64,000 nt of DNA from Candidatus Doudnabacteria bacterium RIFCSPHIGHO2_01_48_18 (GCA_001777515.1 MFEF01000003.1:53423-117422); one strand, 5' to 3'; counted from the first letter of the stretch, positions 2,852-36,288 are shown. The notes: generated by a model from the sequence alone, not told the origin. A program made the numbers and translations.

Positions 2852-2889
2852 ATTCTACATCTATATGCAATAGCATATCTTGTTAGAAT
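2852..2889. promoter_or_regulatory. 38-bp imperfect palindrome ATTCTACATCTATATGCAATAGCATATCTTGTTAGAAT. Member of a 3-copy family; sits between the regulator stop and the typA start.
   Basis: Shares the outer ATTCTA/TAGAAT and central TGCAAT-GCATAT blocks with the sites at 3588 and 36251. Confidence 0.4.
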
Positions 2890-2918
2890 ACATCAATTTC
2901 ATTAATTGGAACAAGTTG

Positions 2919-3575
2919 TTAAATCAAACCTTTCTTTCGAAAAAAATCTTCCAACAATTCATAATCGCTATGATCCAATTGCTTTATCTCCATCAATGTA
3001 ACAAACGGGTTTATATGATAATGTGTCGCTACGGATTCTATTTCTTCCCTGGGATCGAAGGGATGAATCCAAACAGTTCTCTGTAAAGGATAAAATTCCA
3101 TTTGCTTTAACTTTTTCTGAAAAGTATTGGCAGCAATCCGAAACTGCTTTGGAATATCAGCTACCACCATCCACCAATTTCCATTCCAATGTTTAGGCTT
3201 TTTAACTGATAAGTTTTTAAAATTAATCTCGCGTAACCTTTCCTGTCCCTTCTTTGTCGGATAAACCATGAGCAAACCTCCTCGCTTTTCAATATTGATA
3301 TAACCCTGCCGGCGCATGTAATAAAATGATTTTGTCAGCTGATTCTGCCGTTTGACCACAGTATTTTTTCTACTCCCATATTGTTTCTTTCCAAAAATTT
3401 TATCCAGCGCCACAAAAGCATTCGGAGCAATAGCGCTTAGAGCCACCACCCCTGCTGTCATGGCGACTGCCAAAGCAACCTCACCAGCAGTGCGAAGATG
3501 AGCTTTCTGATCTTCTGATAATTCAAATCCTGCCTTCGGGGAAGAATTTTTTATTTCATTTCGGATATCTAACAT
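2919..3575 (-). CDS. PaaX-like transcriptional regulator (winged-HTH N-terminus, PaaX C-terminal domain)
   Basis: The C-terminal motif WNGNWWMVVADIP...LQRTVWIHPF matches the PaaX family signature (WDGRW..DIP...SVWV.P). A wHTH-like segment KSFYYMRRQGYI lies upstream. Confidence 0.55.
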   Translation of the reverse strand: MLDIRNEIKNSSPKAGFELSEDQKAHLRTAGEVALAVAMTAGVVALSAIAPNAFVALDKIFGKKQYGSRKNTVVKRQNQLTKSFYYMRRQGYINIEKRGGLLMVYPTKKGQERLREINFKNLSVKKPKHWNGNWWMVVADIPKQFRIAANTFQKKLKQMEFYPLQRTVWIHPFDPREEIESVATHYHINPFVTLMEIKQLDHSDYELLEDFFRKKGLI

Positions 3576-3587
3576 AGATACGTGATC

Positions 3588-3625
3588 ATTCTACACTAAT
3601 GTGCAATTGCATATCAAGTTAGAAT
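3588..3625. promoter_or_regulatory. 38-bp palindrome-family site ATTCTACACTAATGTGCAATTGCATATCAAGTTAGAAT, 13 bp upstream of the regulator ATG. Candidate autoregulatory operator/promoter.
   Basis: The central TGCAATTGCA is a perfect palindrome. Read on the minus strand, the site contains TTGATA-18-TAGAAT, which would place the regulator's promoter inside the site. Confidence 0.45.
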
Positions 3626-3670
3626 GCAAATATCATTTACTGTTTGTGCAAACTATTTAGAACGTGGATT

Positions 3671-3979
3671 CTAGGCCCCGAAAACCACATGAAAAAAAAT
3701 ATCTTGATCTCTTATATTGGGTCCGTATTTATTTCCCTCTGTCTTGCTTCTTGCAAACAAGAAATAAATGAAGACCGTGATATTTACAACGCGAAAAAAC
3801 ATCCAAGCCGCGTACCATCCGCTCTTACCCACGTCATGGAAGCGCCTCGCAAATAAAGAATAGTAGAAAACATTTTCCACGATCCCAAATATTATAAACA
3901 GAGCTTGGGTATACGTGTTACTGTTCAATGAGGGTAGTATCCAAAAGACTATTATGAATAGGGTTCCGGCCAGAAGCAA
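3671..3979 (-). CDS. DUF805-family inner membrane protein
   Basis: 102 aa with multiple TM helices and the RFHDVGKSGWY motif typical of DUF805 (RxHDxGxSGW). Confidence 0.6.
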   Translation of the reverse strand: MLLAGTLFIIVFWILPSLNSNTYTQALFIIFGIVENVFYYSLFARRFHDVGKSGWYAAWMFFRVVNITVFIYFLFARSKTEGNKYGPNIRDQDIFFHVVFGA

Positions 3980-4061
3980 AAAACTTTGAAAAAAAATTTC
4001 GATTTAGCCTTCCAGAATAGATTTTTTTGATATATCCCAAGATAGAGTGATTGTAGCACAA

Positions 4062-5036
4062 TTAGCGTGCAAGCTGCAATTCAACGATATTCTGAACCTC
4101 TTTTACGTTTCGCGCTGCCATGAGCATCACTCGCAGTTCTTTGGCCCCGTCAAACCCGGTTACATAAGCTTTGTAGTGTTTTTTCATCAAATCGAAATTT
4201 TTTACACCCTTGAAGATCTTTTCAAAAAGAAACGTGTGCTCAAGCATTACTGCCAATTTTTCTTCGAGCGGTACGCTTTTGTAATCCCGCTTGCTTGAGA
4301 ATAGCCACGGATTGCCGAAAATCCCGCGGCCAATCATGACGCCGTCGCAGCCTGTTTCTCTGACTCTCAGCTCTGCTTCATGCCTGTCCTTCACGTCACC
4401 GTTGCCAAAAATAAGTGTTTGTGATTCTAAATCGTTGCGAATCTTGACTGCGTCAGCGATTCGGTCCCAGTGCGCGGGTACAAGCGACATTTCTTTGCGA
4501 GTGCGCGCGTGAAGCGTTATTACCGCCGGCTCAGCCTCCAAGAGCTTCGGCAGCCAGTTATCGAGCTCGTCTTTATTGTAACCCAATCTGATTTTTGCAG
4601 ACACTGGCATCCGCCCGCCGGCGGATTCTGCGCCTTCTTTTGCAGCTTGGATAAGCTCCGCGGCTAGCTTCGGGTTTTTGCAAAGCGCGGCGCCCGCGCC
4701 TTGTTTTTCCACGGCCCGGTCAGGACACCCCATATTGATATCAATCCCGTCAAACTCTAATTCACGGGCGAGCACGGCGCATTTATAAAAGTTTTCTGGC
4801 TTGCTGCCAAAAAATTGCGCCACAATCGGCCGCTCCCCTTCGGTGTATTTCAGATCAATCACCAATTTTTCTTTGCCTGCAGAAACGAGGCCGTCGCAGG
4901 ATACAAACTCGGTCCACATTACGTCGGGCTTACCGTATTTGGCAATAATAAATCGGAAAGCCGCGTCCGTGACATTCGCCAGGGGGGCCAGGACAAAGAT
5001 CGGTCTTTTGAGCATTTTCCAGAAATTAGCTTTCAT
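4062..5036 (-). CDS. dus: tRNA-dihydrouridine synthase
   Basis: 324 aa with a Dus family TIM-barrel N-terminus (LAPLANVTDAAFR and GIDINMGCP). Confidence 0.9.
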   Translation of the reverse strand: MKANFWKMLKRPIFVLAPLANVTDAAFRFIIAKYGKPDVMWTEFVSCDGLVSAGKEKLVIDLKYTEGERPIVAQFFGSKPENFYKCAVLARELEFDGIDINMGCPDRAVEKQGAGAALCKNPKLAAELIQAAKEGAESAGGRMPVSAKIRLGYNKDELDNWLPKLLEAEPAVITLHARTRKEMSLVPAHWDRIADAVKIRNDLESQTLIFGNGDVKDRHEAELRVRETGCDGVMIGRGIFGNPWLFSSKRDYKSVPLEEKLAVMLEHTFLFEKIFKGVKNFDLMKKHYKAYVTGFDGAKELRVMLMAARNVKEVQNIVELQLAR

Positions 5037-5120
5037 TCTATACTTATGAGGCTAATAACTACTAATGTAAAATTCAAAAATCAAAGTGTAAAATTACAAT
5101 GTAAATTTTAAAATTTTTAA

Positions 5121-5837
5121 TTGTCATTTTTCATTTTGATATTTACATTTTCAATTATGGAGTTTCCAATCAGAATAAATCATTACTTGGCTCTAAAACA
5201 ATACTGTTCCCGTCGCATGGCTGACAAACTGATCGCGGGCGGTAAGGTCAAAATCAATGGCAAGGTCGCGGCCATTGGCCAGAAGGTGAACGAAGCAGAC
5301 CGCGTTGAGGTTGATCTGCCTGCAGTTAAAAAAATCTCGGAAGGCCGAGTGTATTTAGCATACCACAAACCAGTGGGAATTGATACCCACGCAGTGAAGT
5401 TCAAAAACCATCCCGGCGTTTTTCCAATCGGCCGTTTGGATAAAAATTCGCATGGACTGATCTTGATGACTAATGACGGCCGTGTGACCGACCGCATGCT
5501 CAATCCCAAATACGATCACGAAAAAGAATATACGGTTACGGTTGATAAAAAACTACGCCCCGGATTTCTGGAACGCTTGCGGACGGGAATCACGATCGAT
5601 GATTATGTTACGAGACCTGCAAAGGTTACGCAGTTAAATGATCACAAATTTAAAATTGTCTTGACTGAAGGGCGGCATCACCAGATCAGGCGCATGTGCG
5701 ACACTTTTGGTTTCACGGTGCGAAGCTTGAAGCGCGAGCGGATCATGAATATTAAACTCACCGGACTAGCGCAGGGACAGCAGAAGCAGCTTGGCGGCGC
5801 AGAATTGAAACTTTTTCTAAAAAACCTCGGACTCTAA
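5121..5837 (+). CDS. Pseudouridine synthase, RsuA/RluB family (S4 domain plus catalytic domain). Alternative start at 5157.
   Basis: S4 RNA-binding region IRINHYLALKQYCSRRMADKLIAGGKVKINGK plus the catalytic motif GRLDKNSHGLILMTNDG. Confidence 0.85.
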   Translation: MSFFILIFTFSIMEFPIRINHYLALKQYCSRRMADKLIAGGKVKINGKVAAIGQKVNEADRVEVDLPAVKKISEGRVYLAYHKPVGIDTHAVKFKNHPGVFPIGRLDKNSHGLILMTNDGRVTDRMLNPKYDHEKEYTVTVDKKLRPGFLERLRTGITIDDYVTRPAKVTQLNDHKFKIVLTEGRHHQIRRMCDTFGFTVRSLKRERIMNIKLTGLAQGQQKQLGGAELKLFLKNLGL

Positions 5838-5839
5838 AC

Positions 5840-6286
5840 CTATTTGATAATTCTCACGGACGCGCGCCTGCCTGGACCTGATGACACAGCGATCGGGTTG
5901 TGACCAGCCGCGACATCAAAGCCGCCCATCCACCATGGTTCATAGGTCATTTTCGCTTTGGCTTCCGCGCCATTCTCGTCAAAAGTTCTGGTATGCGCGC
6001 CGCCGCCGCCTTTTACCACTTTGAATTCTTCCGCATCAGTAATGAACACTGACCAGCCCCAGGATGCTTCAGGATATGGAACATGCGTTATGATGCCATC
6101 TACTGCCGCGACCAATGGCTGCATTTTTTTTCCAAAAATATCATTGCCTTTGTGCGTGCGCTTGCCCCCATCCCGGGGGAAACCAAAATCGTCCACATAA
6201 TTTACCTGTCCGATCACAGGAAATACAATGTCGCGGATAGATTCACCCGAAAATACTATCAGCAGCAAAAGAGTTTTGAATTTCAT
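5840..6286 (-). CDS. Secreted M23-family peptidoglycan peptidase (LytM-like)
   Basis: Signal peptide, an HKGNDIF...AVDGII motif pair and a C-terminal His motif typical of Peptidase_M23. Confidence 0.7.
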   Translation of the reverse strand: MKFKTLLLLIVFSGESIRDIVFPVIGQVNYVDDFGFPRDGGKRTHKGNDIFGKKMQPLVAAVDGIITHVPYPEASWGWSVFITDAEEFKVVKGGGGAHTRTFDENGAEAKAKMTYEPWWMGGFDVAAGHNPIAVSSGPGRRASVRIIK

Positions 6287-6362
6287 CTGCCATTTACGAC
6301 GCAGTGCTTTGCGGTTTATTAATTGTTTTTGTTTCCTGGCACTATAGTGCTATAGTCTAAAT

Positions 6363-6821
6363 ATGATTCGCGAATCAGAAACCGGGCATTTTCGCCCGGG
6401 TGAAACAAAACCATCGCTGGAAAATTTGCAGCAACAATACGCGCAAAAGCTGCTCGAGAGGGAAACAGCAAGAATCAATTATCAGCGCGCTATCGAGGCG
6501 GGTGTGCGATTGCACAATCGCCTGCTTGATGATTTGGGATCAAAAGAAATCAAAACTGAAATGGCAAAGCTCGAGAAGGAGCGCGTAGCCGCGGCAGAAC
6601 GCCTTGGCGGCCTCAAGGCAGAGGTTAACAGTATCACTGATGAAATCACTGCTCTCGCCGGAGCCGATGCCGATGACAAAATTAATGACACTGGTTTATT
6701 TATAGTTGAAGAGTTTAAAAAACTTCTCAAAACTGATCCGGCCAAAGCCATTGAGCTTTCAGCCGGCAACGAATATTTGGAAAAATTAAGGCTCATGGCT
6801 GAAGAGCTCAACCAAAAATAA
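6363..6821 (+). CDS. Hypothetical coiled-coil protein
   Basis: 152 aa, helical/charged, no recognisable domain. Confidence 0.5.
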   Translation: MIRESETGHFRPGETKPSLENLQQQYAQKLLERETARINYQRAIEAGVRLHNRLLDDLGSKEIKTEMAKLEKERVAAAERLGGLKAEVNSITDEITALAGADADDKINDTGLFIVEEFKKLLKTDPAKAIELSAGNEYLEKLRLMAEELNQK

Positions 6822-7078
6822 AATTATTTCTTTCGGAATATATTTTTGATCGCTCCGGAATACAACTCTTCTGTGTAATCTCGCCCCTTCATCACGAGTT
6901 GCTTGATTGAAGGGATTTTTTTTGCGTGCCTCGCATCAGTTTATAAGTACCGCTGCCGCCATCGTTGCCGGCAGCGCCGAGTTTATCAGATCAGCTTGGC
7001 TGGCTTCCGAAATGCCATTTTCGTAAACTCTGATTTTTCGATCGCTGATTTCCGCCGCATTTATTGGCAAGGCAAAAA

Positions 7079-7184
7079 TAAATCCAGCACCTTCCTGTCG
7101 GGGTATTGCACCCCGCAGGAAGGCTATATTGAGCCATTCATCCCCGCAGCAAGCTGCGGGGTATTCTGGAAGGTGCTGGATAAA
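7079..7184 (+). mobile_element. MITE-like 98-bp structured element (copy 1). 13-bp TIR TCCAGCACCTTCC, flanked by TAAA on both sides.
   Basis: Identical to the copies at 9017, 15728 and 20480 (reverse). Contains internal GC hairpins (CCCCGCAGCAAGCTGCGGGG). Confidence 0.7.
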
Positions 7185-7402
7185 ATTGGCTGCGACCAAC
7201 AACATAACTAATAGGTTAGGAAAAAGTTTTTTCGCTGTCATGTATATATTGTGGCCTTCAAATCTAAAACTTCGTTACAAAAACGATTGAGGCGCTGGAA
7301 CAGCCCGGATCGCAGGTTTCTATCGAATTTTTTGACGATATCTGAAATAATTTTGGATTTTTGCACATTTAGCTTTACTGTGGACCGCGCTATACTTAGC
7401 GT

Positions 7403-7639
7403 ATGGATTCCAAGGTGAAAATCTTGATTACAGCAGTGCTGCTGATATTGCTGCCCGTGGCATCGTGGTTTATCTGGCGCGCGGTACGAGAGAAGTCGCA
7501 ACAGGCAAATCCGCCTTCTCCTTCTCCGCAGCAAGCTGTGGTACCCCAGACCACACCTGAACAAATTTTTCCTGCCTCTCCCACGCCAGCAGCTGAGCCG
7601 TCGCCGATACCCCCGCGAACCGGACGCGACAAAAATTAG
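7403..7639 (+). CDS. Small membrane-anchored Pro-rich protein (78 aa)
   Basis: An N-terminal TM helix is followed by P/S/T-rich low-complexity sequence. The overlapping antisense 150-aa ORF is Arg/Cys-rich and not protein-like. Confidence 0.3.
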   Translation: MDSKVKILITAVLLILLPVASWFIWRAVREKSQQANPPSPSPQQAVVPQTTPEQIFPASPTPAAEPSPIPPRTGRDKN

Positions 7640-7672
7640 TTTTAAAATGTTTATTTTATCAGTCCAATTCGG

Positions 7673-9019
7673 ATGTGGTATAATAAACATAGAATGATTT
7701 TGAATGTAAAAAAATATTTTTTACGCTTTATGTTGCTCGCGATTGCCGTCAGCATGATTTCTTTGTCATCTGCAAACGCACAACTCGACAAGCAGCAGGA
7801 AAAAGATCAGCTGCAGCAGCAGCTCAGAGATATTGAAAATCAGATTGCTGCATATCAAAGGGAGCTGGGTCAAATCAAAGGTCAAAAAAATACTCTGCAA
7901 AACAAAATCAACCAACTGAAAAAACAGCAGGCCGCGTTGGGACTGCAGATCAAGGCCACGACATTACAGATTGATGATTTGGATGTCCAGATTACGATGA
8001 CGCAGGAATCGATTGATCGTAACACCGCAAAAGGTGTTGAGCTTAAACAGCAGCTTGCAGAATTTATACGGCTCATCAACGAAAAAGATGGCACCCCCCT
8101 TTTGCTGGCAGTTCTTTCGCAAAACAATTTTTCCGACGTTTTAAACCAGCTGGTGTATTACTCGGAACTCAGTGAAGGCTTGCATTCGATTCTCGAAGAA
8201 ATAAAACAGACAAATGGCGCGCTCGCGCAGGACAAGCAGAAATTTGAAGATAAACAAGGCCAGGCCAGAAATTTATTATCCATTCAAAGTATTCAAAAGG
8301 AACAGCTCGTAGATACTGAGAGTGAACAAAGGGTCTTGCTCGACCAAACGCGCGGCCTGGAGAGTGAATACCAGGCGGTTCTCGGTAATACGCAAAAGAA
8401 AGCCGCCGAGATCAGAAACCGTCTTTACGAATTGACCGGCGCGACCGCCCAGGTTACTTTTGGCGAAGCTGTAGAAATTGCGAAATGGGCCAGCTCTCAC
8501 ACCGGCGTTCGCGCTGCCTTTCTGCTGGCGATTTTGACGCAGGAATCAAACCTGGGGAAAAACGTAGGAACATGCAATCGTGCCGGCGACCCGCCGGAAA
8601 AAAGCTGGCGGATGGTAATGAAACCGGACAGGGATCAGCAGCCATTTCAGCAAATTACAACAGATCTAGGGCTTGATATAGAGACTACGCCTGTATCATG
8701 CCCAATGCGCCAAAACGGCAAGCAGGTTGGCTGGGGCGGCGCGATGGGACCGGCCCAATTTATTCCTTCAACATGGATGGGTTACAAAGATAAAGTCGCG
8801 GCGATTACTGGAAAAACCGCGGACCCCTGGGATATAAAAGACGCGTTTTTGGCCTCAGCCATAAAACTGAAAGCAGGCGGAGCAGGAACAGTTCAGGGTG
8901 AATGGGCGGCAGCCATGCGTTATTTTTCTGGCGGTACCAATCCCCGATTTCGGTTCTACGGCGATAACGTGGTCGCCACCGCGAACCGCTACCAGCAAGA
9001 TATTGACGCGTTAAAATAA
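7673..9019 (+). CDS. Secreted coiled-coil protein fused to a C-terminal lytic-transglycosylase (SLT)-like domain
   Basis: Signal/TM region, a ~250-aa Q/K-rich coiled coil, then a C-terminal LTQESNLG...GPAQFIPSTW (SLT-like G-x-MQ-F-MP-STW). Confidence 0.7.
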   Translation: MWYNKHRMILNVKKYFLRFMLLAIAVSMISLSSANAQLDKQQEKDQLQQQLRDIENQIAAYQRELGQIKGQKNTLQNKINQLKKQQAALGLQIKATTLQIDDLDVQITMTQESIDRNTAKGVELKQQLAEFIRLINEKDGTPLLLAVLSQNNFSDVLNQLVYYSELSEGLHSILEEIKQTNGALAQDKQKFEDKQGQARNLLSIQSIQKEQLVDTESEQRVLLDQTRGLESEYQAVLGNTQKKAAEIRNRLYELTGATAQVTFGEAVEIAKWASSHTGVRAAFLLAILTQESNLGKNVGTCNRAGDPPEKSWRMVMKPDRDQQPFQQITTDLGLDIETTPVSCPMRQNGKQVGWGGAMGPAQFIPSTWMGYKDKVAAITGKTADPWDIKDAFLASAIKLKAGGAGTVQGEWAAAMRYFSGGTNPRFRFYGDNVVATANRYQQDIDALK

Positions 9020-9122
9020 ATCCAGCACCTTCCTGTCGGGGTATTGCACCCCGCAGGAAGGCTATATTGAGCCATTCATCCCCGCAGCAAGCTGCGGGGT
9101 ATTCTGGAAGGTGCTGGATAAA
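9017..9122 (+). mobile_element. MITE-like element (copy 2), inserted at the stop codon of the preceding gene
   Basis: 100% identical 98-bp core. The left TAAA overlaps the TAA stop at 9017-9019. Confidence 0.7.
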
Positions 9123-9137
9123 CATTGAAAGAAACTG

Positions 9138-9166
9138 TTGACTTTTTGCTATATAAAGGCTACAAT
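9138..9166 (+). promoter_or_regulatory. Sigma70-like promoter TTGACT-17-TACAAT
   Basis: Near-consensus hexamers with 17-nt spacing. It drives a ~200-nt unit that ends at the terminator at 9340. Confidence 0.45.
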
Positions 9167-9244
9167 GAACTGCTAATGTCTCATTCGAGACAATCACGAG
9201 TCATGACGGTCGGGGCACCATAACCAGGAAAGGACATCATCACC

Positions 9245-9328
9245 ATGGACGAGATTAAAAACCAGGAAGCCAAACCAGAGGAAATAAAAACTCCGGAAGC
9301 GGCTGCGGCAACAGAAGAAACTAAATAA
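9245..9328 (+). CDS. sORF, 27 aa acidic peptide (MDEIKNQEAKPEEIKTPEAAAATEETK)
   Basis: AGGAAAGGA RBS 9 nt upstream, and the ORF sits between a strong promoter and a terminator. Not in the ORF track (<60 aa). Confidence 0.3.
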   Translation: MDEIKNQEAKPEEIKTPEAAAATEETK

Positions 9329-9339
9329 TTTCTTGTTGT

Positions 9340-9372
9340 AAAAACACCCGCCTTTGGCGGGTGTTTTAATTG
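9340..9372. terminator. Bidirectional intrinsic terminator (ACACCCGCC-TTTG-GCGGGTGT with flanking A/T runs)
   Basis: A perfect 9-bp GC stem. It terminates both the sORF unit and the convergent ABC operon. Confidence 0.65.
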
Positions 9373-9374
9373 TG

Positions 9375-10052: not shown

Positions 10053-10053
10053 T

Positions 10054-11355: not shown

Positions 11356-11363
11356 GTCAATAT

Positions 11364-15452: not shown

Positions 15453-15586
15453 AGTATCTCCATTATAAATCTTGGTTTGAAAGTGTCAATTATACCCAAT
15501 TCTAATAACACTTTCTAAGGGCGATTTTCTAATTCAATGCCCCGGGTGAACAATTTAGCCGCAACTATAAACGGCGATTGAGCCAT

Positions 15587-15628
15587 TTCACCCACTGTAC
15601 AATTCTACCGAATTGTACAGTGGGTGAA
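15587..15628. other. Perfect 19-bp-stem hairpin (TTCACCCACTGTACAATTC-TACC-GAATTGTACAGTGGGTGAA)
   Basis: Exact inverted repeat with a 4-nt loop, intergenic, not followed by a T-run. Confidence 0.5.
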
Positions 15629-15727
15629 ACTCATGCTTCGCTAATGTCCTTTGATTAGGGTCGCATAATTCGCAGTATTGGCACTGAGGAAGCGATAATA
15701 ATTTATATCTCGATTTTTGAAAAGAAA

Positions 15728-15833
15728 TAAATCCAGCACCTTCCTGTCGGGGTATTGCACCCCGCAGGAAGGCTATATTGAGCCATTCATCCCCGCAGCA
15801 AGCTGCGGGGTATTCTGGAAGGTGCTGGATAAA
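15728..15833 (+). mobile_element. MITE-like element (copy 3)
   Basis: 100% identical 98-bp core flanked by TAAA. Confidence 0.7.
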
Positions 15834-16013
15834 TTCCAACCAATAGAAACACAACGGTTGTGGAACAAGATCTTTGAATTTCCGCGTCAGATTTTTAACT
15901 TCTATAATGTTCGTTTTGTTTCTCAATTATTTTTGTAATTCTGGCATTGTGCGAAGTGTAACAAAGCCGCTCGTTAGGCGAAAGCTCAGAGTCTTCGACC
16001 TTTCGGCGGCTAG

Positions 16014-20479: not shown

Positions 20480-20585
20480 TTTATCCAGCACCTTCCAGAA
20501 TACCCCGCAGCTTGCTGCGGGGATGAATGGCTCAATATAGCCTTCCTGCGGGGTGCAATACCCCGACAGGAAGGTGCTGGATTTA
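20480..20585 (-). mobile_element. MITE-like element (copy 4, reverse orientation)
   Basis: Reverse complement is 100% identical to copies 1-3; flanked by TTTA/TAAA. Confidence 0.7.
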
Positions 20586-20752
20586 TTTTTCGATTATGGC
20601 TGTCAACGCCGTGGGGACTTTATTATATGTGGCGGCGCACAAATTGGCCCAGACGAACAAAAATTTATTTGACTTTTTGGCAGGTCTGACCTACTTTACT
20701 CCTTCTCCTCGTTCTACTCTTCCTAAAATTTTTCTGAATTAATTGGATCTAA

Positions 20753-28188: not shown

Positions 28189-28564
28189 TTAATCCAGAGT
28201 TACTGATCAGGGTGTCGAGCCGGACACTTTGTGTGCCTGAATTTTCAAACCACGAAACCACTACTATTGCCTGTTTTATTTCACTGTCGCCGAGATAATT
28301 TGAAACCGTGAGCTGGGCCGTAGAACTGGCAAGAGAACTCAATATCGGATAACTGAAACTGCCAGATCCGGGCAGAGACGCGAACGGCGTGTTTCTAAGC
28401 TCCTCGATTTTTTGCGCGGCCGCATGATAAGCAATGTTCCGATTTCGCGTTCCCTTAATAACCGGGAGGCTTGAAACCGCAACTCCAAACAGCAAAATCG
28501 CGACCATAACCACGGCAAGCGCGACGATCAATTCTACGAGAGAAAATCCGAAGTACCTGTTCAT
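28181..28564 (-). CDS. Type IV prepilin/pseudopilin
   Basis: Class III signal GFSLVELIVALAVV with E+5. Confidence 0.75.
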   Translation of the reverse strand: MNRYFGFSLVELIVALAVVMVAILLFGVAVSSLPVIKGTRNRNIAYHAAAQKIEELRNTPFASLPGSGSFSYPILSSLASSTAQLTVSNYLGDSEIKQAIVVVSWFENSGTQSVRLDTLISNSGLNE

Positions 28565-28566
28565 GT

Positions 28567-29778
28567 TTAAATATTTTGCGAAATGTTGTAAATAGGAAGA
28601 ATGAGACCCACGGCAAGAACACCGACCACTGCGCCAATCACCATGACTAAAATCGGTTCAATGATCGATGAAAGATTTTTTACAGTATCGTCAATTTCCG
28701 CCTCATAAAAATCCGCGACCTCTTCCAAAACCGTTTCCATCGTGCCTGACTCTTCCCCGACCTGGATCATTTGCGTGACCATCGGAGTAAACAAATGAGG
28801 ATAACGCTCGAGCGACGAAACAAGATCAACTCCAATTTTGACTTTTTCGGAAGCGTCAGCCAAAGCCTGCTGGTAATAAATATTGCTCATAGTATTACTG
28901 GTGATAGACAGCGCCTCGACAATAGGCATGCCACTCTTCAATAGACCAGTAAAGATGATTGTAAAGCGGGCTAGGTTGATTTTTTTAACCAAGGTCTTAA
29001 ACATTGGCAGCATTAAGACCAACCGGTGGAGCACTATGTGACCGCTTTGTGTTTTGCGCCAAAACAAAAAGCCCGCTATCAAACCTCCAAGACCAATTCC
29101 CACCAAGATTGAATACCTCGAAAATATATCTACCGTGGTTATTATAACTCTGGTCAAAATCGGCAAGTCAGTATCAAACTCAGCAAAAGAAGCGGTGAGT
29201 TTTGGCAACACGAACGTAAACATTAAATACCCAATGATTAGCAGGGCTACCACGACAACGGCCGGGTATGTCATTGCACCCTTGGTGCGGCGGATGAGGT
29301 TGTAATCGCGGCCTATTTGTTTCGCCAAGTACTGTAAGGTATCATCCAACTCGCCGCTTGTTTCTCCAACCTTTACCATGTTGACAAAAATCGGTGAAAA
29401 TATGCGGGGATACGCGCCAAGACTTTCCGACAAAGTTTTTCCTGATTCGACATTATGCGCGATGTCAGCAATGACGCGGCTGAAATAAGGGTTGGACATC
29501 TGCTTGGTTACCACAACCAGCGCGCGCGACACAGGCAAGCCGGCCTTCAGAGTTACAGCGAGATTTTTGGCGAAAGTCAGCTTCTCAAGGAGCGAAACGC
29601 GGCCAAGCATTGAAAAAATAGAGCCGAATTCGCGTTTGGCGCGTTTTTCTTCGATCTGCGTAGGCAGTAATCCCTGACCGCGCAGAATCTGTCCCATTGC
29701 TTCGCGCGATTCTGCCTCGCCGCTATCATTGATCGTCTGGCCCTCGCGATTTTTCGCTGTGTATGTATATTGCGGCAT
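28567..29778 (-). CDS. pilC: Type IV pilus platform protein PilC (GspF family)
   Basis: Two T2SSF repeats and 3 TM helices; 403 aa. Confidence 0.9.
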   Translation of the reverse strand: MPQYTYTAKNREGQTINDSGEAESREAMGQILRGQGLLPTQIEEKRAKREFGSIFSMLGRVSLLEKLTFAKNLAVTLKAGLPVSRALVVVTKQMSNPYFSRVIADIAHNVESGKTLSESLGAYPRIFSPIFVNMVKVGETSGELDDTLQYLAKQIGRDYNLIRRTKGAMTYPAVVVVALLIIGYLMFTFVLPKLTASFAEFDTDLPILTRVIITTVDIFSRYSILVGIGLGGLIAGFLFWRKTQSGHIVLHRLVLMLPMFKTLVKKINLARFTIIFTGLLKSGMPIVEALSITSNTMSNIYYQQALADASEKVKIGVDLVSSLERYPHLFTPMVTQMIQVGEESGTMETVLEEVADFYEAEIDDTVKNLSSIIEPILVMVIGAVVGVLAVGLILPIYNISQNI

Positions 29779-29779
29779 G

Positions 29780-31519
29780 CTATTCTTTTGTCACTCTCAA
29801 GACTTCGTTAATTGTTGTCAATCCCTGATGCGCTTTGATAAAACCGTCCTGCCACATGAGCACCATTGATTCTTGAACCGCCTGCGATTGAATCTGATTG
29901 GTGGTTGCCTGCGATACGATCAATTTTTGAACGGGCTCAGAGACGTTCAGTACCTCGTATATACCCATGCGGCCTTTGTAACCGGTATGATTGCATTTTT
30001 CACAACCTTTACCCTCATAAAAATCAAGGTCCGTAACCCGTTTGACTTTTTCTACTCCCTCGCGCTTCATAACCTCCACGAGGGAATCGAGGTCAAAATC
30101 TCGCGAAAGGCTTTCCGCGGTTTTATCATCGATCTTTTTTATCTCTTTGCAGTCCTGGCAAATTTTTCTTACCAAACGCTGGCCCACAACCGTATTCAAT
30201 GTTGAGGCTATAAGATACGGCTCGACCCCGATGTCCAAAAGACGCGGAATCGCGCCGGCCGCGTTGTTGGTATGAAGAGTCGAAAGCACGATGTGCCCGG
30301 TCATGGCCGCGTGCACTGCTTCCTCTGCGGTTTCTTTATCGCGGATTTCACCGATCATGATGATGTTTGGATCTTGCCTGAGAAGCGCCCTCAGGCCCAT
30401 GGCAAACGATAAACTGATCTTGGGGTTGACCTGCATTTGGTTGACGCCAAAAATCCGATACTCAACGGGGTCCTCAATAGTGCTGATGTTCACGCCCTTG
30501 GTATTGAGCATAGAAAGAACAGTGTACAAGGTGGTGGATTTACCTGAACCGGTGGGACCGGTGATGAGTGTCATGCCATGCGAACGGGAAAGATTACCTT
30601 TGATGATATCCAAAGCCGATCTGGCAAATCCGAGTTCCTCGAAGGTAACAGCCTTGGCCCCCTCATCCAAAAGGCGCAGCACGACTTTTTCACCGTCAAA
30701 AATCGGGATAGTGGAAACGCGGAATGATATATTGTATTGATCTGTTTGAATCTTGAACCGCCCATCCTGCGGCAGCCGATGCTCATCGATCTTGAGGTTT
30801 GATAAAACCTTGATGCGGGCCACGAGCGCCGGCTGAATCACCTTTGGCAAAGTCATCACGTCGTGCAAAATGCCGTCAATGCGATAACGAACCGTGACCT
30901 CCTTTTCCTGCGGCTCAATGTGAATGTCAGACGCTCCTTCAAAAATCGCGTATTCAAGCAAAGTATCCACAACGCGCACCACAGGGATCTCTTGCGCCAT
31001 TTTTACCAGCTGGCTCCCCTCTTCCTTGTCGTCCATTTTGACGTCGTTCTTTTTAGACGTCAAAATTTTCTCAAACTCAGCCTTCAGATTGGAGTGATAT
31101 TGGGTCAAGGCCGCCTCCAGGCCGGAATCAGTGGCTAGGAACGGTTTGATGACGAAGCCAGTTTTCTTTTTTACGAATTCCCTCGTCTGCAGGTCTTCGG
31201 GATCTGTCATCGCGAGGTCCAGCTCGTTGTTTTTCTTGCGGAACGCGATTACCTGATGCCGCCTGGCGATCGGTTCGGGAATGATCTTCAGCACATCCTG
31301 AGGAATTTTTTCAGCGGTCAGATCCACCACCGGCACCTTCAAAAAATCACTCACGAGCTTGGTCAGTTTGTCTTCCGGAATAATTTTCTTCGTGACCAGA
31401 TAGCCAGACAGGGTTTGTTTTTTTTCCTTAGCATCCTGCTCTAGCTTGTCAAGATCTTTTTCTTCGACTATTTTATTGGTGACCAGAATCTTTTTCAGGT
31501 CAGTGGAGGCAAATGCCAT
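29780..31519 (-). CDS. pilB: Type IV pilus assembly ATPase PilB (GspE family)
   Basis: N-terminal T2SSE_N domain, Walker A GPTGSGKST, Asp/His boxes, tetracysteine CQDC...CEKC. Confidence 0.95.
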   Translation of the reverse strand: MAFASTDLKKILVTNKIVEEKDLDKLEQDAKEKKQTLSGYLVTKKIIPEDKLTKLVSDFLKVPVVDLTAEKIPQDVLKIIPEPIARRHQVIAFRKKNNELDLAMTDPEDLQTREFVKKKTGFVIKPFLATDSGLEAALTQYHSNLKAEFEKILTSKKNDVKMDDKEEGSQLVKMAQEIPVVRVVDTLLEYAIFEGASDIHIEPQEKEVTVRYRIDGILHDVMTLPKVIQPALVARIKVLSNLKIDEHRLPQDGRFKIQTDQYNISFRVSTIPIFDGEKVVLRLLDEGAKAVTFEELGFARSALDIIKGNLSRSHGMTLITGPTGSGKSTTLYTVLSMLNTKGVNISTIEDPVEYRIFGVNQMQVNPKISLSFAMGLRALLRQDPNIIMIGEIRDKETAEEAVHAAMTGHIVLSTLHTNNAAGAIPRLLDIGVEPYLIASTLNTVVGQRLVRKICQDCKEIKKIDDKTAESLSRDFDLDSLVEVMKREGVEKVKRVTDLDFYEGKGCEKCNHTGYKGRMGIYEVLNVSEPVQKLIVSQATTNQIQSQAVQESMVLMWQDGFIKAHQGLTTINEVLRVTKE

Positions 31520-31523
31520 ATCG

Positions 31524-33692
31524 CTATTTATTTTGTGTTAAACATTTTTTTTCAAGCTCGGCGATGAAATTCTGTCCTTGGACTTTGTATTTCGACTCCA
31601 GAGAAACAGCGGTTTGGATTTGCGCGCGCGCGGCGCTGACGTCGCAGACCTGCCCATATATGTTAGCAATCAGCCCATGATCTTCAGCGGTCAAGGTATG
31701 TCCGAGCTGGCGTAAATTATTAAACTCCTCATTTACGATATCCGCTCGTTTGGAAAGCACGGCGGCTAAAATATAGTTGAGATGCGATTCTTTTGGCTGC
31801 GGGTTCAGATCCACCGCTTTTTTGAAATATTCCAGGCCAAGATCCTGGCGGCCTTTGAGAAACGCGGCCTGTCCCAGCTCTGTGTAGATCTGCGGCCGGG
31901 TCGGCGAAAGCTTGAGAGCTTGCTCTCCAAGCTCAAAAACCCGGTCGACGTTGCCGATCTCAGCCGCGGAGATATTGAAAACGTTCATTAGATAAAGATA
32001 ATTTTTAACGTCATGGGGGGCTTGCGCGATATTTTTTTCAAATTCAGAAACGACAAAATTGTAGAGATCTTTTTTTTCCTGCGGGCTGAGCGCTCCGCTT
32101 GCAGAAGATTCCGCAGCGTAATCAAACAGCCTCTGGCGGATTTCTTCATCCATATAGGTTCCATACGAAAGGGCTTTTTTGAAATTGCCGTGCACTGAGC
32201 GGTATTGCTTTAGTTTCGCGGATTTGATGCCCTCGGTCGTAAAATAGTTGGCTGACGCTGGCTGCAGATTGATAAAATAGATGCTCATGATTGCCATTAC
32301 AATCACAACCACAGTAGGCATGTACCCAAGGTTATAAACTTTTGGGGTCGAAGCAACAGGGTCCCCATAACCGATGGTCAGATAAGCGAGAAATCCGAGT
32401 ACTAAAAAGAACAACAAATACGTGGCGTGCGTATCGAAAACAAACAAATTCTGAATGAAATAAGCAAAAAGCAGGGCAGTGAGGACAACCGTTTGCACGG
32501 GCGAGATAACAGTTCTGCGCCAAGCTTTAAGTAAAGCAAAAAACGCCATGGCAAAAATTCCCAGGTAGGCTGCAATCCCAAACACTCCAGTAGTTACCGC
32601 TATGTCGAGCACTGTGTTATGCGCTCTGTCAAACCAGATTTGACTGCCCTGATTTTTGAATATGGATGGCGGAAAATATTTGTTAAACGCGACATTATAA
32701 TTTTCGTAGCCATAGCCGAGAATAAAGCGATCCCGCCAGCCTTTCCACGAGGCCTCCCAGGTTTCCAGACGATTTTGAGTTGTCGTGTCTGTTTTGAAGA
32801 TTCTGCTCAAACGTTTTACAACCACAATGTTTTCAATCGGATCTGGCAAGGATGCTGGTTTCAAAAACAAAATAAACGGACCTAATACCATGAATATGGC
32901 CACGACGCTGCTGGCGATTTTGACTGATCTTTTTTGTCCTCTAAAAATCAAAAACAAAATCACCAAAAAAACACTGAAGTATAAAGCAACTGCACCGCCG
33001 CGGGTTTGAGTTTGTATGACTATGAAAGCATTGAAAAACCCCGCCACGAAAAACAACCGCTTTGCCAATTTATTGCTGATCTCCGCTGCCATAAACCAAG
33101 ACAAAAAAGCGCCGAATAGCATGACCGCCGCGTAAAAAGCAGCGTTGCCGATCGTCGCAGAAATACGCGTGCCTTGCATTGGCGGAGCAAATCGGCAAAA
33201 CCCTTCTTTCTCTAAACCGCATGACAGCTGTACGAGACCGATTAATCCCAAAAAAGTTACAACAATCACCACTGCCGTAAGATATTTTTGCCAGTCACGC
33301 CGCGTACGCAGCACCGTCGGTAGCATTGTAAAATAAGCGGCAAAATGCAGCATGGTGATGATCCCCTCCCCTCTTTCGATCGTTCCCCAAAGGCTTTTCG
33401 AAAAATTTACGCCAAAAATCGCAGTCACAAACATGATGAGCATATATATCCAAACCACGCCAGTGAGCCAGTTCCTTTTTGGCCGAAGAGAAGGATGCAG
33501 CAGAGTAAGAGGAATATATATCGCAAGCGCGATCTCTATGAGAAGCCGAAAATAAATTACTTTGCTCGTGATAAAAGGAAATAAAAAAGCACTCCAGAGC
33601 CAGATCGGAGTGAGTAAAATAGCATACAAAATAATTTTTAGTATTTTGTAGGAAATTTTTGTTTCTAAGGCTGAATCAATTGCATCCGCCAT
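31524..33692 (-). CDS. O-antigen ligase-family (Wzy_C) polytopic membrane protein with C-terminal TPR repeats. Candidate PglL/PilO-type O-oligosaccharyltransferase.
   Basis: ~12 TM helices with a large periplasmic loop resembling Wzy_C (QTQTRGG...); the C-terminal ~250 aa are TPR-like. Confidence 0.65.
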   Translation of the reverse strand: MADAIDSALETKISYKILKIILYAILLTPIWLWSAFLFPFITSKVIYFRLLIEIALAIYIPLTLLHPSLRPKRNWLTGVVWIYMLIMFVTAIFGVNFSKSLWGTIERGEGIITMLHFAAYFTMLPTVLRTRRDWQKYLTAVVIVVTFLGLIGLVQLSCGLEKEGFCRFAPPMQGTRISATIGNAAFYAAVMLFGAFLSWFMAAEISNKLAKRLFFVAGFFNAFIVIQTQTRGGAVALYFSVFLVILFLIFRGQKRSVKIASSVVAIFMVLGPFILFLKPASLPDPIENIVVVKRLSRIFKTDTTTQNRLETWEASWKGWRDRFILGYGYENYNVAFNKYFPPSIFKNQGSQIWFDRAHNTVLDIAVTTGVFGIAAYLGIFAMAFFALLKAWRRTVISPVQTVVLTALLFAYFIQNLFVFDTHATYLLFFLVLGFLAYLTIGYGDPVASTPKVYNLGYMPTVVVIVMAIMSIYFINLQPASANYFTTEGIKSAKLKQYRSVHGNFKKALSYGTYMDEEIRQRLFDYAAESSASGALSPQEKKDLYNFVVSEFEKNIAQAPHDVKNYLYLMNVFNISAAEIGNVDRVFELGEQALKLSPTRPQIYTELGQAAFLKGRQDLGLEYFKKAVDLNPQPKESHLNYILAAVLSKRADIVNEEFNNLRQLGHTLTAEDHGLIANIYGQVCDVSAARAQIQTAVSLESKYKVQGQNFIAELEKKCLTQNK

Positions 33693-33799
33693 AAATTTAT
33701 TATACGACCTTTTAACATTTGCGTCAAAACCATTTTCTCATCCCGGGCCAATCTGTGCGATTATACAACAGTAACTGGCTCTGCTATAATTAGCAAAAT

Positions 33800-35173
33800 A
33801 TGTTAGGAAATTTGAAAAAAACCATCTTGTTTTTTGGGGATTTGCTGGTTATGTATATGTCCCTTTATTTGACGCTACTTTTGCGTTATCGGGAGATACC
33901 AACACAAAATATCTGGGAAATGCATTTTCTGCCATTCACTGTTTTGTTTCTCGTTTGGTGCGCAGTTTACTACATCAATGGTCTGTATGATATCGCGGCA
34001 ACGAAAAATGATGTCGAGTTCTATAACAGCGTGCTCCGTAATCTGTTGGTGAGTTTTGCGATGGCAGCCGCGTATTTTTATCTTCTCACGGACAATCTCT
34101 TTCATATCAAACCGCAGCTGGTGTTCTTCATCATGATCGGTGTTCATTCGATCCAATTTTCTCTCTGGAGATTTTGGTACAACGCCTTTGTGCAGCGGCC
34201 AGAGTTTCTCAAAAATATTCTGGTGATCGGCATGAAAGATGAAGCCAGAGAGCTTGTTGACGAAATTTTCAAAAAACCACAGCTTGGCTACCGCATCGCG
34301 GCCATCATCAACGGTCAAAAAATGGCTTCCGAGTTTCCCGGAGTCGCGATTTACGATGCCACCGCTGACATAAAAAAAATCATCCGCGACCATGGCATCA
34401 GTACGGTAATAACTGCCGTTGACCCGAGAACTATTCCAGAGCTTGTGCAAAATCTTTTCTCCAGTTTATCAATGCGCATACAATTTTATGATTTGCCGGA
34501 TTTTTATGAAAAGCTTACTGGGAAAATCCCAGTGACCGGCATTGGCCACATCTGGTTTTTGCAAAACATCGCGAAAGGGCAAAACGGCATCTATGAATTT
34601 CTGAAAAGATCCACGGATTTGCTGCTGGCCACAGTCGGCCTAATAGTTTCCCTCCCTTTTTGGCCGATCATTGCCGTCGCGATCAAGCTTGATTCTTCGG
34701 GACCGATCTTCTTTAAACAAAACCGCGTGGGGTTTCTGGGCCGGCATTTTACCGCGGTAAAATTTCGCAGCATGCGGGTAGGCGCTGAAGCAGAAGGCGG
34801 GCCGCAGTGGGCCTCAAAAAACGATCCGCGAGTAACACGCCTCGGAAGATTCATGAGAAAGGTCCGTTTGGACGAAATCCCGCAGTTTATCAATATCATC
34901 AAAGGCGAGATGTCGCTCATCGGCCCGCGGCCTGAGCGTCCCGAATTCGTCAAAACCCTGGAGCGTGATATCCCCTTTTACAACGAACGTCATCTCGTAA
35001 AACCCGGGCTAACTGGCTGGGCCCAGATAAATTTTCAATACGGCGAATCTACCCGGGATGCTTTCAAAAAACTCCAGTATGATTTGTTTTATGTAAAAAA
35101 TCGCTCCATCCCTCTTGATCTTGGCATCGTGCTTAAAACCATCAATATCATGCTCAGCGGTAAAGGGCAGTAG
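33800..35173 (+). CDS. Undecaprenyl-phosphate sugar phosphotransferase (WbaP/PglC-type initiating PGT)
   Basis: N-terminal TM bundle, a CoA-binding-like linker, and the C-terminal bacterial sugar transferase domain (PGLTGWAQINFQYGE, DL..V). Confidence 0.9.
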   Translation: MLGNLKKTILFFGDLLVMYMSLYLTLLLRYREIPTQNIWEMHFLPFTVLFLVWCAVYYINGLYDIAATKNDVEFYNSVLRNLLVSFAMAAAYFYLLTDNLFHIKPQLVFFIMIGVHSIQFSLWRFWYNAFVQRPEFLKNILVIGMKDEARELVDEIFKKPQLGYRIAAIINGQKMASEFPGVAIYDATADIKKIIRDHGISTVITAVDPRTIPELVQNLFSSLSMRIQFYDLPDFYEKLTGKIPVTGIGHIWFLQNIAKGQNGIYEFLKRSTDLLLATVGLIVSLPFWPIIAVAIKLDSSGPIFFKQNRVGFLGRHFTAVKFRSMRVGAEAEGGPQWASKNDPRVTRLGRFMRKVRLDEIPQFINIIKGEMSLIGPRPERPEFVKTLERDIPFYNERHLVKPGLTGWAQINFQYGESTRDAFKKLQYDLFYVKNRSIPLDLGIVLKTINIMLSGKGQ

Positions 35174-35204
35174 CTTTTGGCTAACTGTAGCCAAAGATGG
35201 CGAC

Positions 35205-35232
35205 AAAAATGGCTTATTCAAGCCATTTTTTT
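35205..35232 (+). terminator. Intrinsic terminator (AAAAATGGCTT-ATTC-AAGCCATTTTT)
   Basis: Perfect 11-bp stem including the A/T extension, followed by a T-run. Confidence 0.6.
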
Positions 35233-35243
35233 GGTTGAAAGTC

Positions 35244-35272
35244 TTGACAATATTGCCAAAAAGGAGTAAGAT
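35244..35272 (+). promoter_or_regulatory. Sigma70-like promoter TTGACA-17-TAAGAT
   Basis: Consensus -35 and 17-nt spacer; would drive the structured leader plus gene 35582-35941. Confidence 0.4.
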
Positions 35273-35279
35273 ATATGGT

Positions 35280-35581
35280 TAAAATGATTGTAAGATCATT
35301 CCCGCGCCATTCGGCGGGAATCCAGTTTTAACACCGCACATTTATTCCCTTATATAAAACACCCGTTAAAAGAGAGCGAGCCACATCTGTCACCTTGTCA
35401 TTCCGGACTTGATCCGGAATCCATGCTCTCTTTGCCGAGAGCTTTTATTTTTCACAAGATGAGCAATTTGGATGTAACTATTATTCCCAAGATGCTCATC
35501 TGGTGACTGGCAATAAGGCTGGTGTACCCGAGTGAGTCGAGGGTCTAGACGGGTCTAGACATATTTGTAACTGGAGGATGT
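35280..35581 (+). promoter_or_regulatory. ~300-nt structured 5' leader / candidate cis-regulatory RNA
   Basis: Several stable hairpins (TTCCCGCGCC/GGCGGGAA; ATTCCGGA-CTTGA-TCCGGAAT; tandem GGGTCTAGAC x2). No ORF >20 aa. Ends at a GGAGGA RBS. Confidence 0.3.
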
Positions 35582-35941
35582 ATGTTAAAGTCCGTTGTTA
35601 ACACGGTGGGATTGGCAGATCAGGCCGTTCAAAATTTTCGTACCAGTTTAGCGGACAGAGTTGAACGGTTATCGATGCACTGCTGGGGATCGAATGTTAA
35701 CACTCAACTGGGCGTAATCAATACGTTGATTACATCAGTGAATGCGATCACTGCCCCTCATCGCCAGCAGTTCGAAGCCGTCGAGCCATTTGATGACGAG
35801 GAAATCAAACAACTCACGGTGATTCTCGCTCCGCTCCGCGAACTGAATATGGCCGACAAGGTGAGAGAATTCCTCGTGGCCGCCTTGACTGAAAAAGGAT
35901 TCGATCCTGAAATTTTCAAGGCAAAGGCTCATCAGCGGTAA
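35582..35941 (+). CDS. Hypothetical protein (119 aa)
   Basis: Strong RBS GGAGGATGT-ATG, good coding statistics, no recognisable domain. Confidence 0.5.
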   Translation: MLKSVVNTVGLADQAVQNFRTSLADRVERLSMHCWGSNVNTQLGVINTLITSVNAITAPHRQQFEAVEPFDDEEIKQLTVILAPLRELNMADKVREFLVAALTEKGFDPEIFKAKAHQR

Positions 35942-36173
35942 ATTTTCCGAAGGAAGTGGTTCGCCGCTTCCTTCAACTCCCAAGCTCTGGACTAACTCAA
36001 GAGTTTAGGAGTTCTGGAAACAACTTTGGGTACTAATGAACAGGACATTAGTATTTCACTAGCCTGAATACTCTAGTACCCAAAATCGTTTCTGGAATTT
36101 GACATCCCGATGTCGAGACAATTTCAGCTGCTACCTTTCGGGAAAGGGAGCAAACAATTCTTTGGAGGATACA

Positions 36174-36242
36174 ATGAGAAAAGCTTTGGCTTTGATGGCG
36201 ATCGGGATCCTGCGCTCGATGATTTTTTTCTTCAAGTTGTAA
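36174..36242 (+). CDS. sORF, 22-aa hydrophobic peptide (MRKALALMAIGILRSMIFFFKL)
   Basis: GGAGGA RBS 5 nt upstream; ends 9 bp before the perfect palindrome. Not in the ORF track. Confidence 0.25.
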   Translation: MRKALALMAIGILRSMIFFFKL

Positions 36243-36250
36243 CTCAAATC

Positions 36251-36288
36251 ATTCTACATCTATATGCAATTGCATATAGATGTAGAAT
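36251..36288. promoter_or_regulatory. Perfect 38-bp palindrome ATTCTACATCTATATGCAATTGCATATAGATGTAGAAT. Palindrome-family site 3, at the 3' end of the glycan cluster.
   Basis: Exact inverted repeat (18-bp arms). Its left half is identical to site 2852-2889. Confidence 0.5.

Follow-up and report, generated by a model that had tools for sequence, protein, structure and literature searches.

What maintains three closely related 38-bp palindromes in one stretch of DNA, two of them on either side of a single regulator gene and the third far from it? The question is raised by a 64-kb stretch (hereafter the window) from Candidatus Doudnabacteria, which belongs to the Candidate Phyla Radiation (CPR, or Patescibacteria), in which site 1 and site 2 lie downstream and upstream, respectively, of a gene encoding a 218-aa relative of the regulator PaaX, and site 3 is an orphan. 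Based on comparison of the gene and its flanking sequences across relatives, the palindromes are very probably binding sites of the PaaX-like protein whose gene two of them enclose. Both the pairing of protein and site and the conserved two-site cassette are well supported, and to our knowledge the layout of palindrome, gene and palindrome has not been described previously.

The three palindromic sites

The preliminary description of this DNA had placed three 38-bp sites in the window, and they were found at those positions (Table 1) both by reading the sequence and by scanning it. When the degenerate pattern ATTCTA-N9-GCAATNGC-N9-TAGAAT was scanned with up to two mismatches, sites 1-3 alone were matched across the 64 kb, in comparison to no match in 100 dinucleotide-preserving shuffles. 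The three sites were also grouped by a repeat finder as one repeat family with 80-84% identity over 44 nt; the hexamer layout ATTCTA-N26-TAGAAT is common to all of them, and the left 19 nt are identical between site 3 and site 1. Site 3, first described as an 18+18 palindrome, is in fact a perfect 19+19 palindrome.

Site 2 does lie just upstream of the regulator ATG (3575), at a gap of 12 nt. Site 1 starts 29 nt past the regulator stop codon (2919-2921) and ends 100 nt ahead of the typA ATG (2751), and thus stands between the two genes as described. Site 3 sits between the convergent 3' ends of a 22-aa hydrophobic short open reading frame (sORF), which is present where it had been reported and ends 7 nt from the site, and a GT2 glycosyltransferase gene (36314-38515, minus strand). 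At the gathering threshold, Rfam found only four transfer RNAs in the window and no known RNA family at or near sites 1-3.

Conservation of the palindromes beside the gene

Among 1.84 billion representative proteins, 2,261 relatives of the regulator were found at E<=1e-3 and 773 at E<=1e-10, most of them 180-245 aa long; these roughly 2,260 relatives are representatives at 50% identity. In about 40 independent loci, with protein identity of 28-70% and varied neighbours, the ~220-aa gene is flanked both upstream and downstream by a 19+19-bp palindrome, and a 38-bp palindrome adjoins the gene in every ~220-aa homologue examined with enough flanking sequence. Four other Doudnabacteria lineages (62-68% identity) carry the same 38-bp site on both sides, oriented with the gene, among different neighbours: smpB-argS or a convergent uvrA comes next, and the preceding genes differ. 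In remote relatives from metagenome and genome loci (28-57% identity), two 38-bp palindromes still bracket the gene and their sequence has changed, examples being ATTTCA..AGCAATTGCT..TGAAAT, TTTGTCAATTGATACACAATTGTGTATCAATTGACAAA, TTGTGGGGAAATTGCGCAATTGCGCAATTTCCCCACAA and ATTCTACAAAAAGCTGCATATGCAGCTTTTTGTAGAAT. The outer arms vary by lineage (ATTCTA, ATTTCA, TTGTC, TTGGAAA and others) while the length is constant at 38 bp.

The two copies of a locus resemble each other well beyond the background. Between the two flanks of the gene, the best match of a 30-mer mostly covered 23-30 of 30 positions, whereas equally spaced control window pairs had a median of 19, with 22.5 as the 95th percentile, and in two loci (designated L007 and L003; other loci are numbered likewise) the copies are identical over 38/38 and 37/38 positions, respectively. 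The results also showed that the site follows the protein: mean site identity was 0.74 at protein identity above 60% and about 0.46 at protein identity below 45%, and the correlation of site with protein similarity (Mantel rho 0.28) was reached in only 1 of 2000 permutations. Intergenic DNA would be expected to be randomised at such protein divergence. A site of constant geometry and changing sequence that is kept beside the gene is therefore best explained as the protein's own target, and the tie between palindromes and PaaX-like gene that had been proposed from the window is upheld, the spacing of 6-N26-6 being also close to the 6-N27-6 of PaaX.

Family members whose origin could be placed come from Doudnabacteria and from a metagenome-assembled genome (MAG) labelled Saccharibacteria, both of the CPR; a literature search found no published description of such proteins in CPR bacteria. 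One short form of the protein (184 aa, locus L073) is accompanied by GTGCAAC-N19-GTTGCAC upstream and GTACA-N22-TGTAC downstream, with a common 13-nt core, CCGAACGGACAGA.

Table 1. Positions of the palindromes, neighbouring genes and associated elements; coordinates refer to the window except in the last row, which refers to locus L073
Feature	Coordinates	Strand	Sequence or basis
Site 1, downstream palindrome	2852-2889	-	ATTCTACATCTATATGCAATAGCATATCTTGTTAGAAT
Site 2, upstream palindrome	3588-3625	-	ATTCTACACTAATGTGCAATTGCATATCAAGTTAGAAT; coding strand ATTCTAACTTGATATGCAATTGCACATTAGTGTAGAAT
Site 3, orphan palindrome	36251-36288	.	ATTCTACATCTATATGCAATTGCATATAGATGTAGAAT
Truncated PaaX relative gene, 218 aa	2919-3575	-	Pfam PaaX_M and structure model
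typA/bipA	937-2751	-	Pfam GTP_EFTU and BipA_C
Candidate typA promoter, GTGACA-17-TATGAT, TG motif before second hexamer	2803-2831	-	Consensus match only
22-aa hydrophobic sORF	36175-36243	+	MRKALALMAIGILRSMIFFFKL; GGAGGA 4 nt upstream of ATG
Short-form sites of L073	~3905-3940 and ~4630-4665		Short inverted ends around CCGAACGGACAGA

The encoded protein

The regulator matched Pfam PaaX_M (PF20803) over aa 128-204 with an E value of 5.4e-16 (58.9 bits, in comparison to a cut-off of 24), and this domain is carried by all the full-length homologues listed. TIGR02277, the PaaX equivalog model, was aligned over profile positions 40-152 of 279 only, with 24.6 bits in comparison to a cut-off of 264.55. 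In the AlphaFold2 (AF2) model, the mean predicted local distance difference test score was 71 and that of the Cas2-like domain was above 90. The best Foldseek match of this model was E. coli PaaX (8a39, E 2.7e-5, 211 aligned columns), followed by Cas2 proteins, Rv0674 and PadR-like winged-helix proteins. The hhalign alignment with E. coli PaaX spans PaaX aa 57-164, that is, the recognition helix, the wing and the central domain; both this alignment and that with TIGR02277 begin in the recognition helix and wing, where aa 83 onward of the regulator corresponds to about aa 57-60 onward of PaaX. The Pfam model of the PaaX N-terminal region gave no match to the regulator, and there is no PaaX C-terminal domain, as the chain ends after the Cas2-like domain. 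As modelled, the protein is composed of a PadR/PaaX-type winged helix (about aa 21-120) and a Cas2-like PaaX_M domain (aa 128-204). By these matches the regulator is a truncated relative of PaaX, without the C-terminal domain that binds the effector, and it is not a PaaX orthologue. Residue D140, considered as a possible catalytic Asp of the Cas2-like domain, is invariant across the family; the aligned residue is Glu in E. coli PaaX and Ser in Rv0674.

Residues 31-57 of the product are hydrophobic and rich in Ala, Val and Gly, and a basic cluster comes after them; AF2 confidence is low in this region. The segment could either anchor the protein in the membrane or form the first two helices of the winged helix; the number of helices in the AF2 model agrees with helices 1-2 of a PadR/PaaX fold, and Foldseek aligns nearly the whole chain to PaaX.

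In the window the regulator is neighboured by dus, a DUF805 gene and typA. No paa genes were present among its immediate neighbours (the whole window was not exhaustively scanned for paa), and the relatives stand beside other housekeeping genes. That a decayed duplicate of the regulator gene might lie near site 3 was considered and rejected: the best tblastn hit had an E value of only 3 and came from a 112-aa open reading frame (ORF) at 15588-15926 without a Pfam match.

Upstream site and regulator promoter

On its coding strand, site 2 contains TTGATA (3617-3612), an 18-nt spacer and TAGAAT (3593-3588), a pair that the promoter scan reported just as the preliminary description had given it. 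The same position and orientation were found in L003, L005 and L009, with TTGACA-like left arms, and in the other Doudnabacteria loci these left-arm positions read TTGACA or TTGACC. Of 30 loci, 18 have a forward -35/-10 pair that overlaps the upstream site and 5 have a reverse one; for the downstream site the numbers are 10 of 30 and 5 of 30, respectively. In six loci (the window, L003, L005, L009, L035 and L075) the upstream copy breaks the palindrome exactly where the -35 element forms. Two of these, L035 and L075, belong to unrelated clades, and in them the upstream site differs from a perfect downstream copy in such a way as to give TTGACG-18-TAATAT and TTTACA-17-TAAAAT, respectively. Taken together, the asymmetry of the upstream site and its overlap with the putative promoter support probable autorepression, and the excess of forward over reverse pairs favours the earlier suggestion that the regulator promoter would lie inside the upstream palindrome.

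Additional TAGAA(T)-N4/5-(A)TTCTA pairs occur just outside both gene-flanking palindromes, at 2775-2795 and 3658-3675. The hexamer TAGAAT also recurs ahead of smpB in L005 and L009, and these organisms may favour it as a -10 element.

Downstream site

The downstream site is present with any next gene, whether typA, smpB, yebC, an RNase T-like gene, a convergent uvrA (L007) or a convergent tyrS (L022), and the next gene is convergent in about one third of loci; typA is thus not a conserved neighbour of the regulator. In the window, the candidate typA promoter lies between site 1 and the gene, and the scan detected no promoter in site 1. Because the downstream copy is kept whatever gene comes next, site 1 is part of the cassette of the regulator itself and not an operator specific to typA. 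An enrichment of convergent neighbours at downstream sites was also considered and was not significant (about 35% in comparison to a background of 23%, from rough ORF calls).

A terminator-like hairpin, TCTGCTGTTAGCAGA followed by TTTTTTG, is located at 2763-2783 on the minus strand, 12 nt ahead of the typA ATG and downstream of the promoter-like element. It may act as an attenuator in a leader, or else terminate the regulator transcript with some read-through.

Orphan copies and copy number

The number of copies per genome is small. MAG GCA_030700065.1, the only one with a genome-wide count, has five sites, of which two flank the regulator gene and three are orphans. In a scan of a genome collection, the pattern occurred in 8 stretches only, which included these five sites, two sites in a MAG with a family member of its own and one orphan in the MAG labelled Saccharibacteria; the other two stretches, from Elusimicrobia and Cohnella, had no family gene nearby, and their number is near the 4 or so that a rough estimate gives by chance for 19 specified bases. 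Scans of individual loci gave one orphan in L052 and one in L075, and most 20-kb loci held no copy beyond the flanking pair. A high-copy repeat element, which the preliminary description had offered as an alternative in the form of a second small repeat family, was rejected on these counts, with few copies in the collection and five in the one Doudnabacteria MAG.

Seven orphans could be compared for their placement. Four lie between convergent genes (site 3 and those in L013, L016 and L075), two between tandem genes, and one was not classifiable. Of all junctions in these loci about 17% are convergent, so that at least 4 of 6 classifiable orphans would be found there with a binomial probability of about 0.02. 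Such placement is not what a promoter regulon predicts, and the view of site 3 as a regulatory site of the glycan operon is not supported as it was put, as site 3 and most other orphans sit between convergent genes with no promoter to control. Site 3 and the orphans of L013 and L052 are perfect palindromes, and that of L075 is symmetric at 18/19 positions. In L012 the orphan has another setting: oriented like a promoter, it precedes a hicBA-like pair by 131 nt.

A solo site at the smpB/argS locus was considered as an empty-site comparison and was set aside, since smpB and argS are not in the window. Small GIY-YIG nuclease genes are located near palindromes in L003 (2138-2377), L009 (2710-2856 and 730-981) and L075 (13803-14081), at distances of 34 nt from the L009 upstream site and 110 nt from the L075 orphan; this could be coincidence.

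Proposed mechanism and alternative explanations

The reading that we regard as probable is that the palindromes are cognate binding sites of the 2919-3575 protein, a truncated PaaX-type repressor acting at its own promoter, with a second operator and orphan barrier sites. A dimer or a dimer of dimers would contact the outer hexamers ATTCTA/TAGAAT, which are 32 bp or about three helical turns apart from centre to centre, and would also contact the central TGCAATTGCA; the Cas2-like domain would serve for dimerisation, as in PaaX. Site 2 would contain the gene's own promoter, TTGATA-18-TAGAAT, and binding there would occlude it and turn the gene off. Site 1 would be a second operator, which may loop with site 2 over about 740 bp and/or block transcription entering or leaving the gene. 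Site 3, which has no -35-like asymmetry, would be a protein-bound barrier, an insulator or a sink at a convergent junction, such a role being preferred to promoter control because of the preference of orphans for convergent junctions.

Several observations weigh against this repressor model. The N-terminal 70 residues are poorly modelled, AF2 confidence being below 50 for aa 1-70. Promoter-like matches near site 2 are as many as expected from shuffles, so that TTGATA-18-TAGAAT, a consensus match, is not significant by itself. A simple operator model predicts neither the convergent next gene in a third of loci nor the convergent placement of four of the six classifiable orphans, and two relatives of short form (184 and 192 aa) were found without the 38-bp palindrome. 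All 19 pairs match in many of the downstream and orphan copies, even at positions which are apparently unread. Between copies of one locus, 19 compensated double changes were counted in comparison to 1-9 in slid-partner controls, and in L041 (upstream and downstream copies) and L052 (downstream and orphan copies) both differences are compensated; such changes are not required by two independently bound half-sites. In L031 and L075 the entire A/T tract is flipped on both arms, and an asymmetric centre (for example CACATTCGTG or GGCAATAGCA) is inverted between upstream and downstream copies, with the arms in register, in seven loci (L033, L039, L042, L056, L058, L071 and L011) and has the same orientation in four others. 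The compensated changes suggest that the arms are homogenised, that hairpin or cruciform potential matters, or that a symmetric DNA shape is read. There is also a minor possibility that protein and palindrome form a self-contained module where it is palindromy itself, as hairpin or cruciform potential beyond two half-sites, that is kept, with the gene always between two copies, perfect orphans placed or propagated at convergent junctions and the bound protein acting as a bidirectional transcription or replication barrier or as an architectural or partition-like anchor; this would be a gene-palindrome system of small-genome CPR bacteria not described before, and in a variant of this explanation the Cas2-like domain would act on the DNA itself. 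Partial left-arm copies (ATTCTAACCTTGA, ATTCTAATTCTAACTTACACT) are stacked directly before the full downstream site in L007 (3664-3732), and these stacked arms, together with the identical copies of that locus, suggest slippage or conversion at the palindrome.

That the palindromes need no protein at all, and work as nucleic-acid hairpins (RNA terminators, stabilisers or processing sites, or DNA cruciforms) that bracket the gene and mark convergent junctions, is very unlikely. Site 3 folds at -26.5 kcal/mol (z -8.2) and was reported by a loose terminator scan on the minus strand only, the one that carries the glycosyltransferase operon; its stem is A+T-rich (5 G-C of 19 pairs) and its tail is TTTGAGTT. 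Many downstream and orphan sites are perfect 19-bp stems, compensated changes are found between copies of one locus, and the upstream site often lies directly against the end of the gene before it, in several loci just 1-13 nt from the stop codon. Sites 1 and 2 on the other hand fold weakly, at about -12 kcal/mol (site 2 z -1.9), they were not reported by the terminator scan, and no T run (the U-tract of a terminator) follows them or the inspected downstream sites of other loci. Across 60 curated sites the symmetry is bipartite and not uniform along the stem: arm positions 1-6 (the outer hexamer) are 80-97% symmetric and positions 16-18 beside the dyad 87-100%, in comparison to only 57-73% for positions 8-12. 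Mismatched pairs showed no bias toward G-U on the sense strand (40, in comparison to 31 on the antisense strand), most being of transversion type (141). The outer hexamer and centre are moreover conserved in sequence within a clade, which a stem would not need, and the strict link to one gene family would be left unexplained. Bipartite symmetry fits a protein that reads two blocks per half-site, and because it is found together with weak folding, no G-U bias and no T run, the sites are better taken as protein-read than as an RNA stem. A sense-strand RNA hairpin was thus rejected as the general explanation, an ordinary intrinsic terminator is not supported, and the bidirectional terminators once suggested as an alternative are mostly excluded with them.

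Two further explanations give the sites another purpose. In a classical small regulon, site 2 would autoregulate, site 1 would be the operator or promoter of typA and site 3 would control or terminate the glycan operon. The downstream site of Doudnabacteria keeps a promoter-like asymmetry (CTGACA-18-TAGAAT, TCGACA-18-TAGAAT), the next gene there, smpB or typA, is usually co-directional, the L003 downstream site ends 22 nt ahead of the smpB ATG, and the L012 orphan precedes its hicBA-like pair in promoter orientation. We nevertheless find a regulon of this kind unlikely, given a downstream site that is retained even before convergent genes, a separate promoter-like element before typA, and four orphans at convergent junctions. 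Quite unlikely is a selfish or mobile module, in which the cassette travels or the protein propagates the palindrome, either in the manner of RAYT/REP systems (see below) or bounded by recombination sites, the orphans being solo copies or scars. The gene is always bracketed by its own palindromes in a context that differs by lineage, and the preference for convergent junctions is typical of tolerated insertions; the near-identical copies of L007 and L003, the partial arms of L007, the inverted centres, the compensated changes which keep palindromes perfect, and the GIY-YIG genes in three loci also agree with it. The protein however has no transposase, recombinase or HUH domain (Pfam at E<=10 gives PaaX_M plus noise), PADLOC gave no match at E<=1 for three family members, and no relatives were found in IMG/VR or in plasmid and phage collections. 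There is one gene copy per contig or MAG examined and orphans are few, the context was the same in 24 of 24 contigs read with the identical protein, no target-site duplication was evident in the printed flanks, and loss of synteny at 40-65% protein identity needs no mobility.

Comparison with known systems

Similar to the PaaX repressor of E. coli and Pseudomonas, the protein discussed here has a central Cas2-like domain and a probable winged helix homologous to that of PaaX, its sites, 38 bp long in comparison to 39 bp for PaaX, hold two inverted 6-bp hexamers at a distance of about three helical turns, and it probably represses its own gene. The E. coli PaaX operator is TGATTC-N27-GAATCA (PMC9493321, citing Kim et al. 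2004), and according to the review no structure of a PaaX-operator complex has been solved (PMC9493321). Key differences are that the protein here has 218 aa and lacks the C-terminal phenylacetyl-CoA-binding domain, in comparison to 316 aa for PaaX, that the centre of the sites is palindromic and conserved, their symmetry often being perfect across 38 bp, and that a site stands on either side of the gene. In the paa region of E. coli K-12, the sole near-consensus box lies between paaZ and paaA and none flanks paaX; bracketing of E. coli paaX by PaaX boxes was accordingly rejected, there being none beyond chance at up to three mismatches.

Another comparison is offered by repetitive extragenic palindromic (REP) sequences and REP-associated tyrosine transposases (RAYT), where a single-copy gene is bracketed by gene-specific palindromes and more copies are dispersed between genes, often at 3' ends. 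The likeness is one of bracketing pattern only: the regulator here is without a Y1/HUH (IS200/IS605-like) transposase domain, there are about five copies per genome and not tens to hundreds, and the upstream copy would double as a promoter. PadR-like proteins that bind long palindromes, such as AspA, the centromere-binding protein of pNOB8, resemble the regulator in their winged-helix fold (4rs8 and 5k5q in the Foldseek list), at the fold level only with E about 0.05. AspA and ParB-parS systems also have a handful of palindromic sites per replicon, some by their own gene and some off promoters, and they differ in that no conserved partition ATPase or ParB-like partner was found near the regulator loci and no evidence of spreading was seen. 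HlyU of Vibrio parahaemolyticus is, according to its published account (PMC10325908), a winged-helix regulator that acts on an exsBA intergenic palindrome which can extrude as a cruciform; it differs in being of the ArsR/SmtB type family and in concerning a single locus with no gene-bracketing pair.

Other features of the window

A 110-nt repeat is present in three copies that are 99-100% identical (7075-7184, 9013-9122 and 15724-15833), with fragments at 7523-7541 and 20502-20587. It forms a G+C-rich hairpin, TCCCCGCAGCAAGCTGCGG, has inverted ends, TCCAGCACCTTCC/GGAAGGTGCTGGA, is unrelated to the 38-bp palindromes, and might represent either a small mobile element or a structured RNA. Adjoining its third copy, at 15586-15629, two 20-nt arms, TTTCACCCACTGTACAATTC / GAATTGTACAGTGGGTGAAA, form a perfect inverted repeat around a 4-nt spacer, which is overlapped by the 112-aa ORF mentioned above. 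The glycan cluster ends in a gene-poor stretch of 1.1 kb (35174-36313), which holds a 119-aa ORF without a Pfam match, the 22-aa sORF, and inverted repeats at 35452-35506 and 36012-36097.

Implications

CPR bacteria have tiny genomes, and we know of almost no characterised transcription factors in them. The 38-bp site, with its 6-N26-6 layout and its centre, the predicted autoregulatory circuit and the conserved two-site layout together provide a testable protein-site pair in this group, and the truncated relative and its site offer a comparative handle on PaaX. If the orphans prove to be protein-bound barriers or propagated copies, they would be of wider interest for the insulation of transcription units or for the origin of palindromic repeats.

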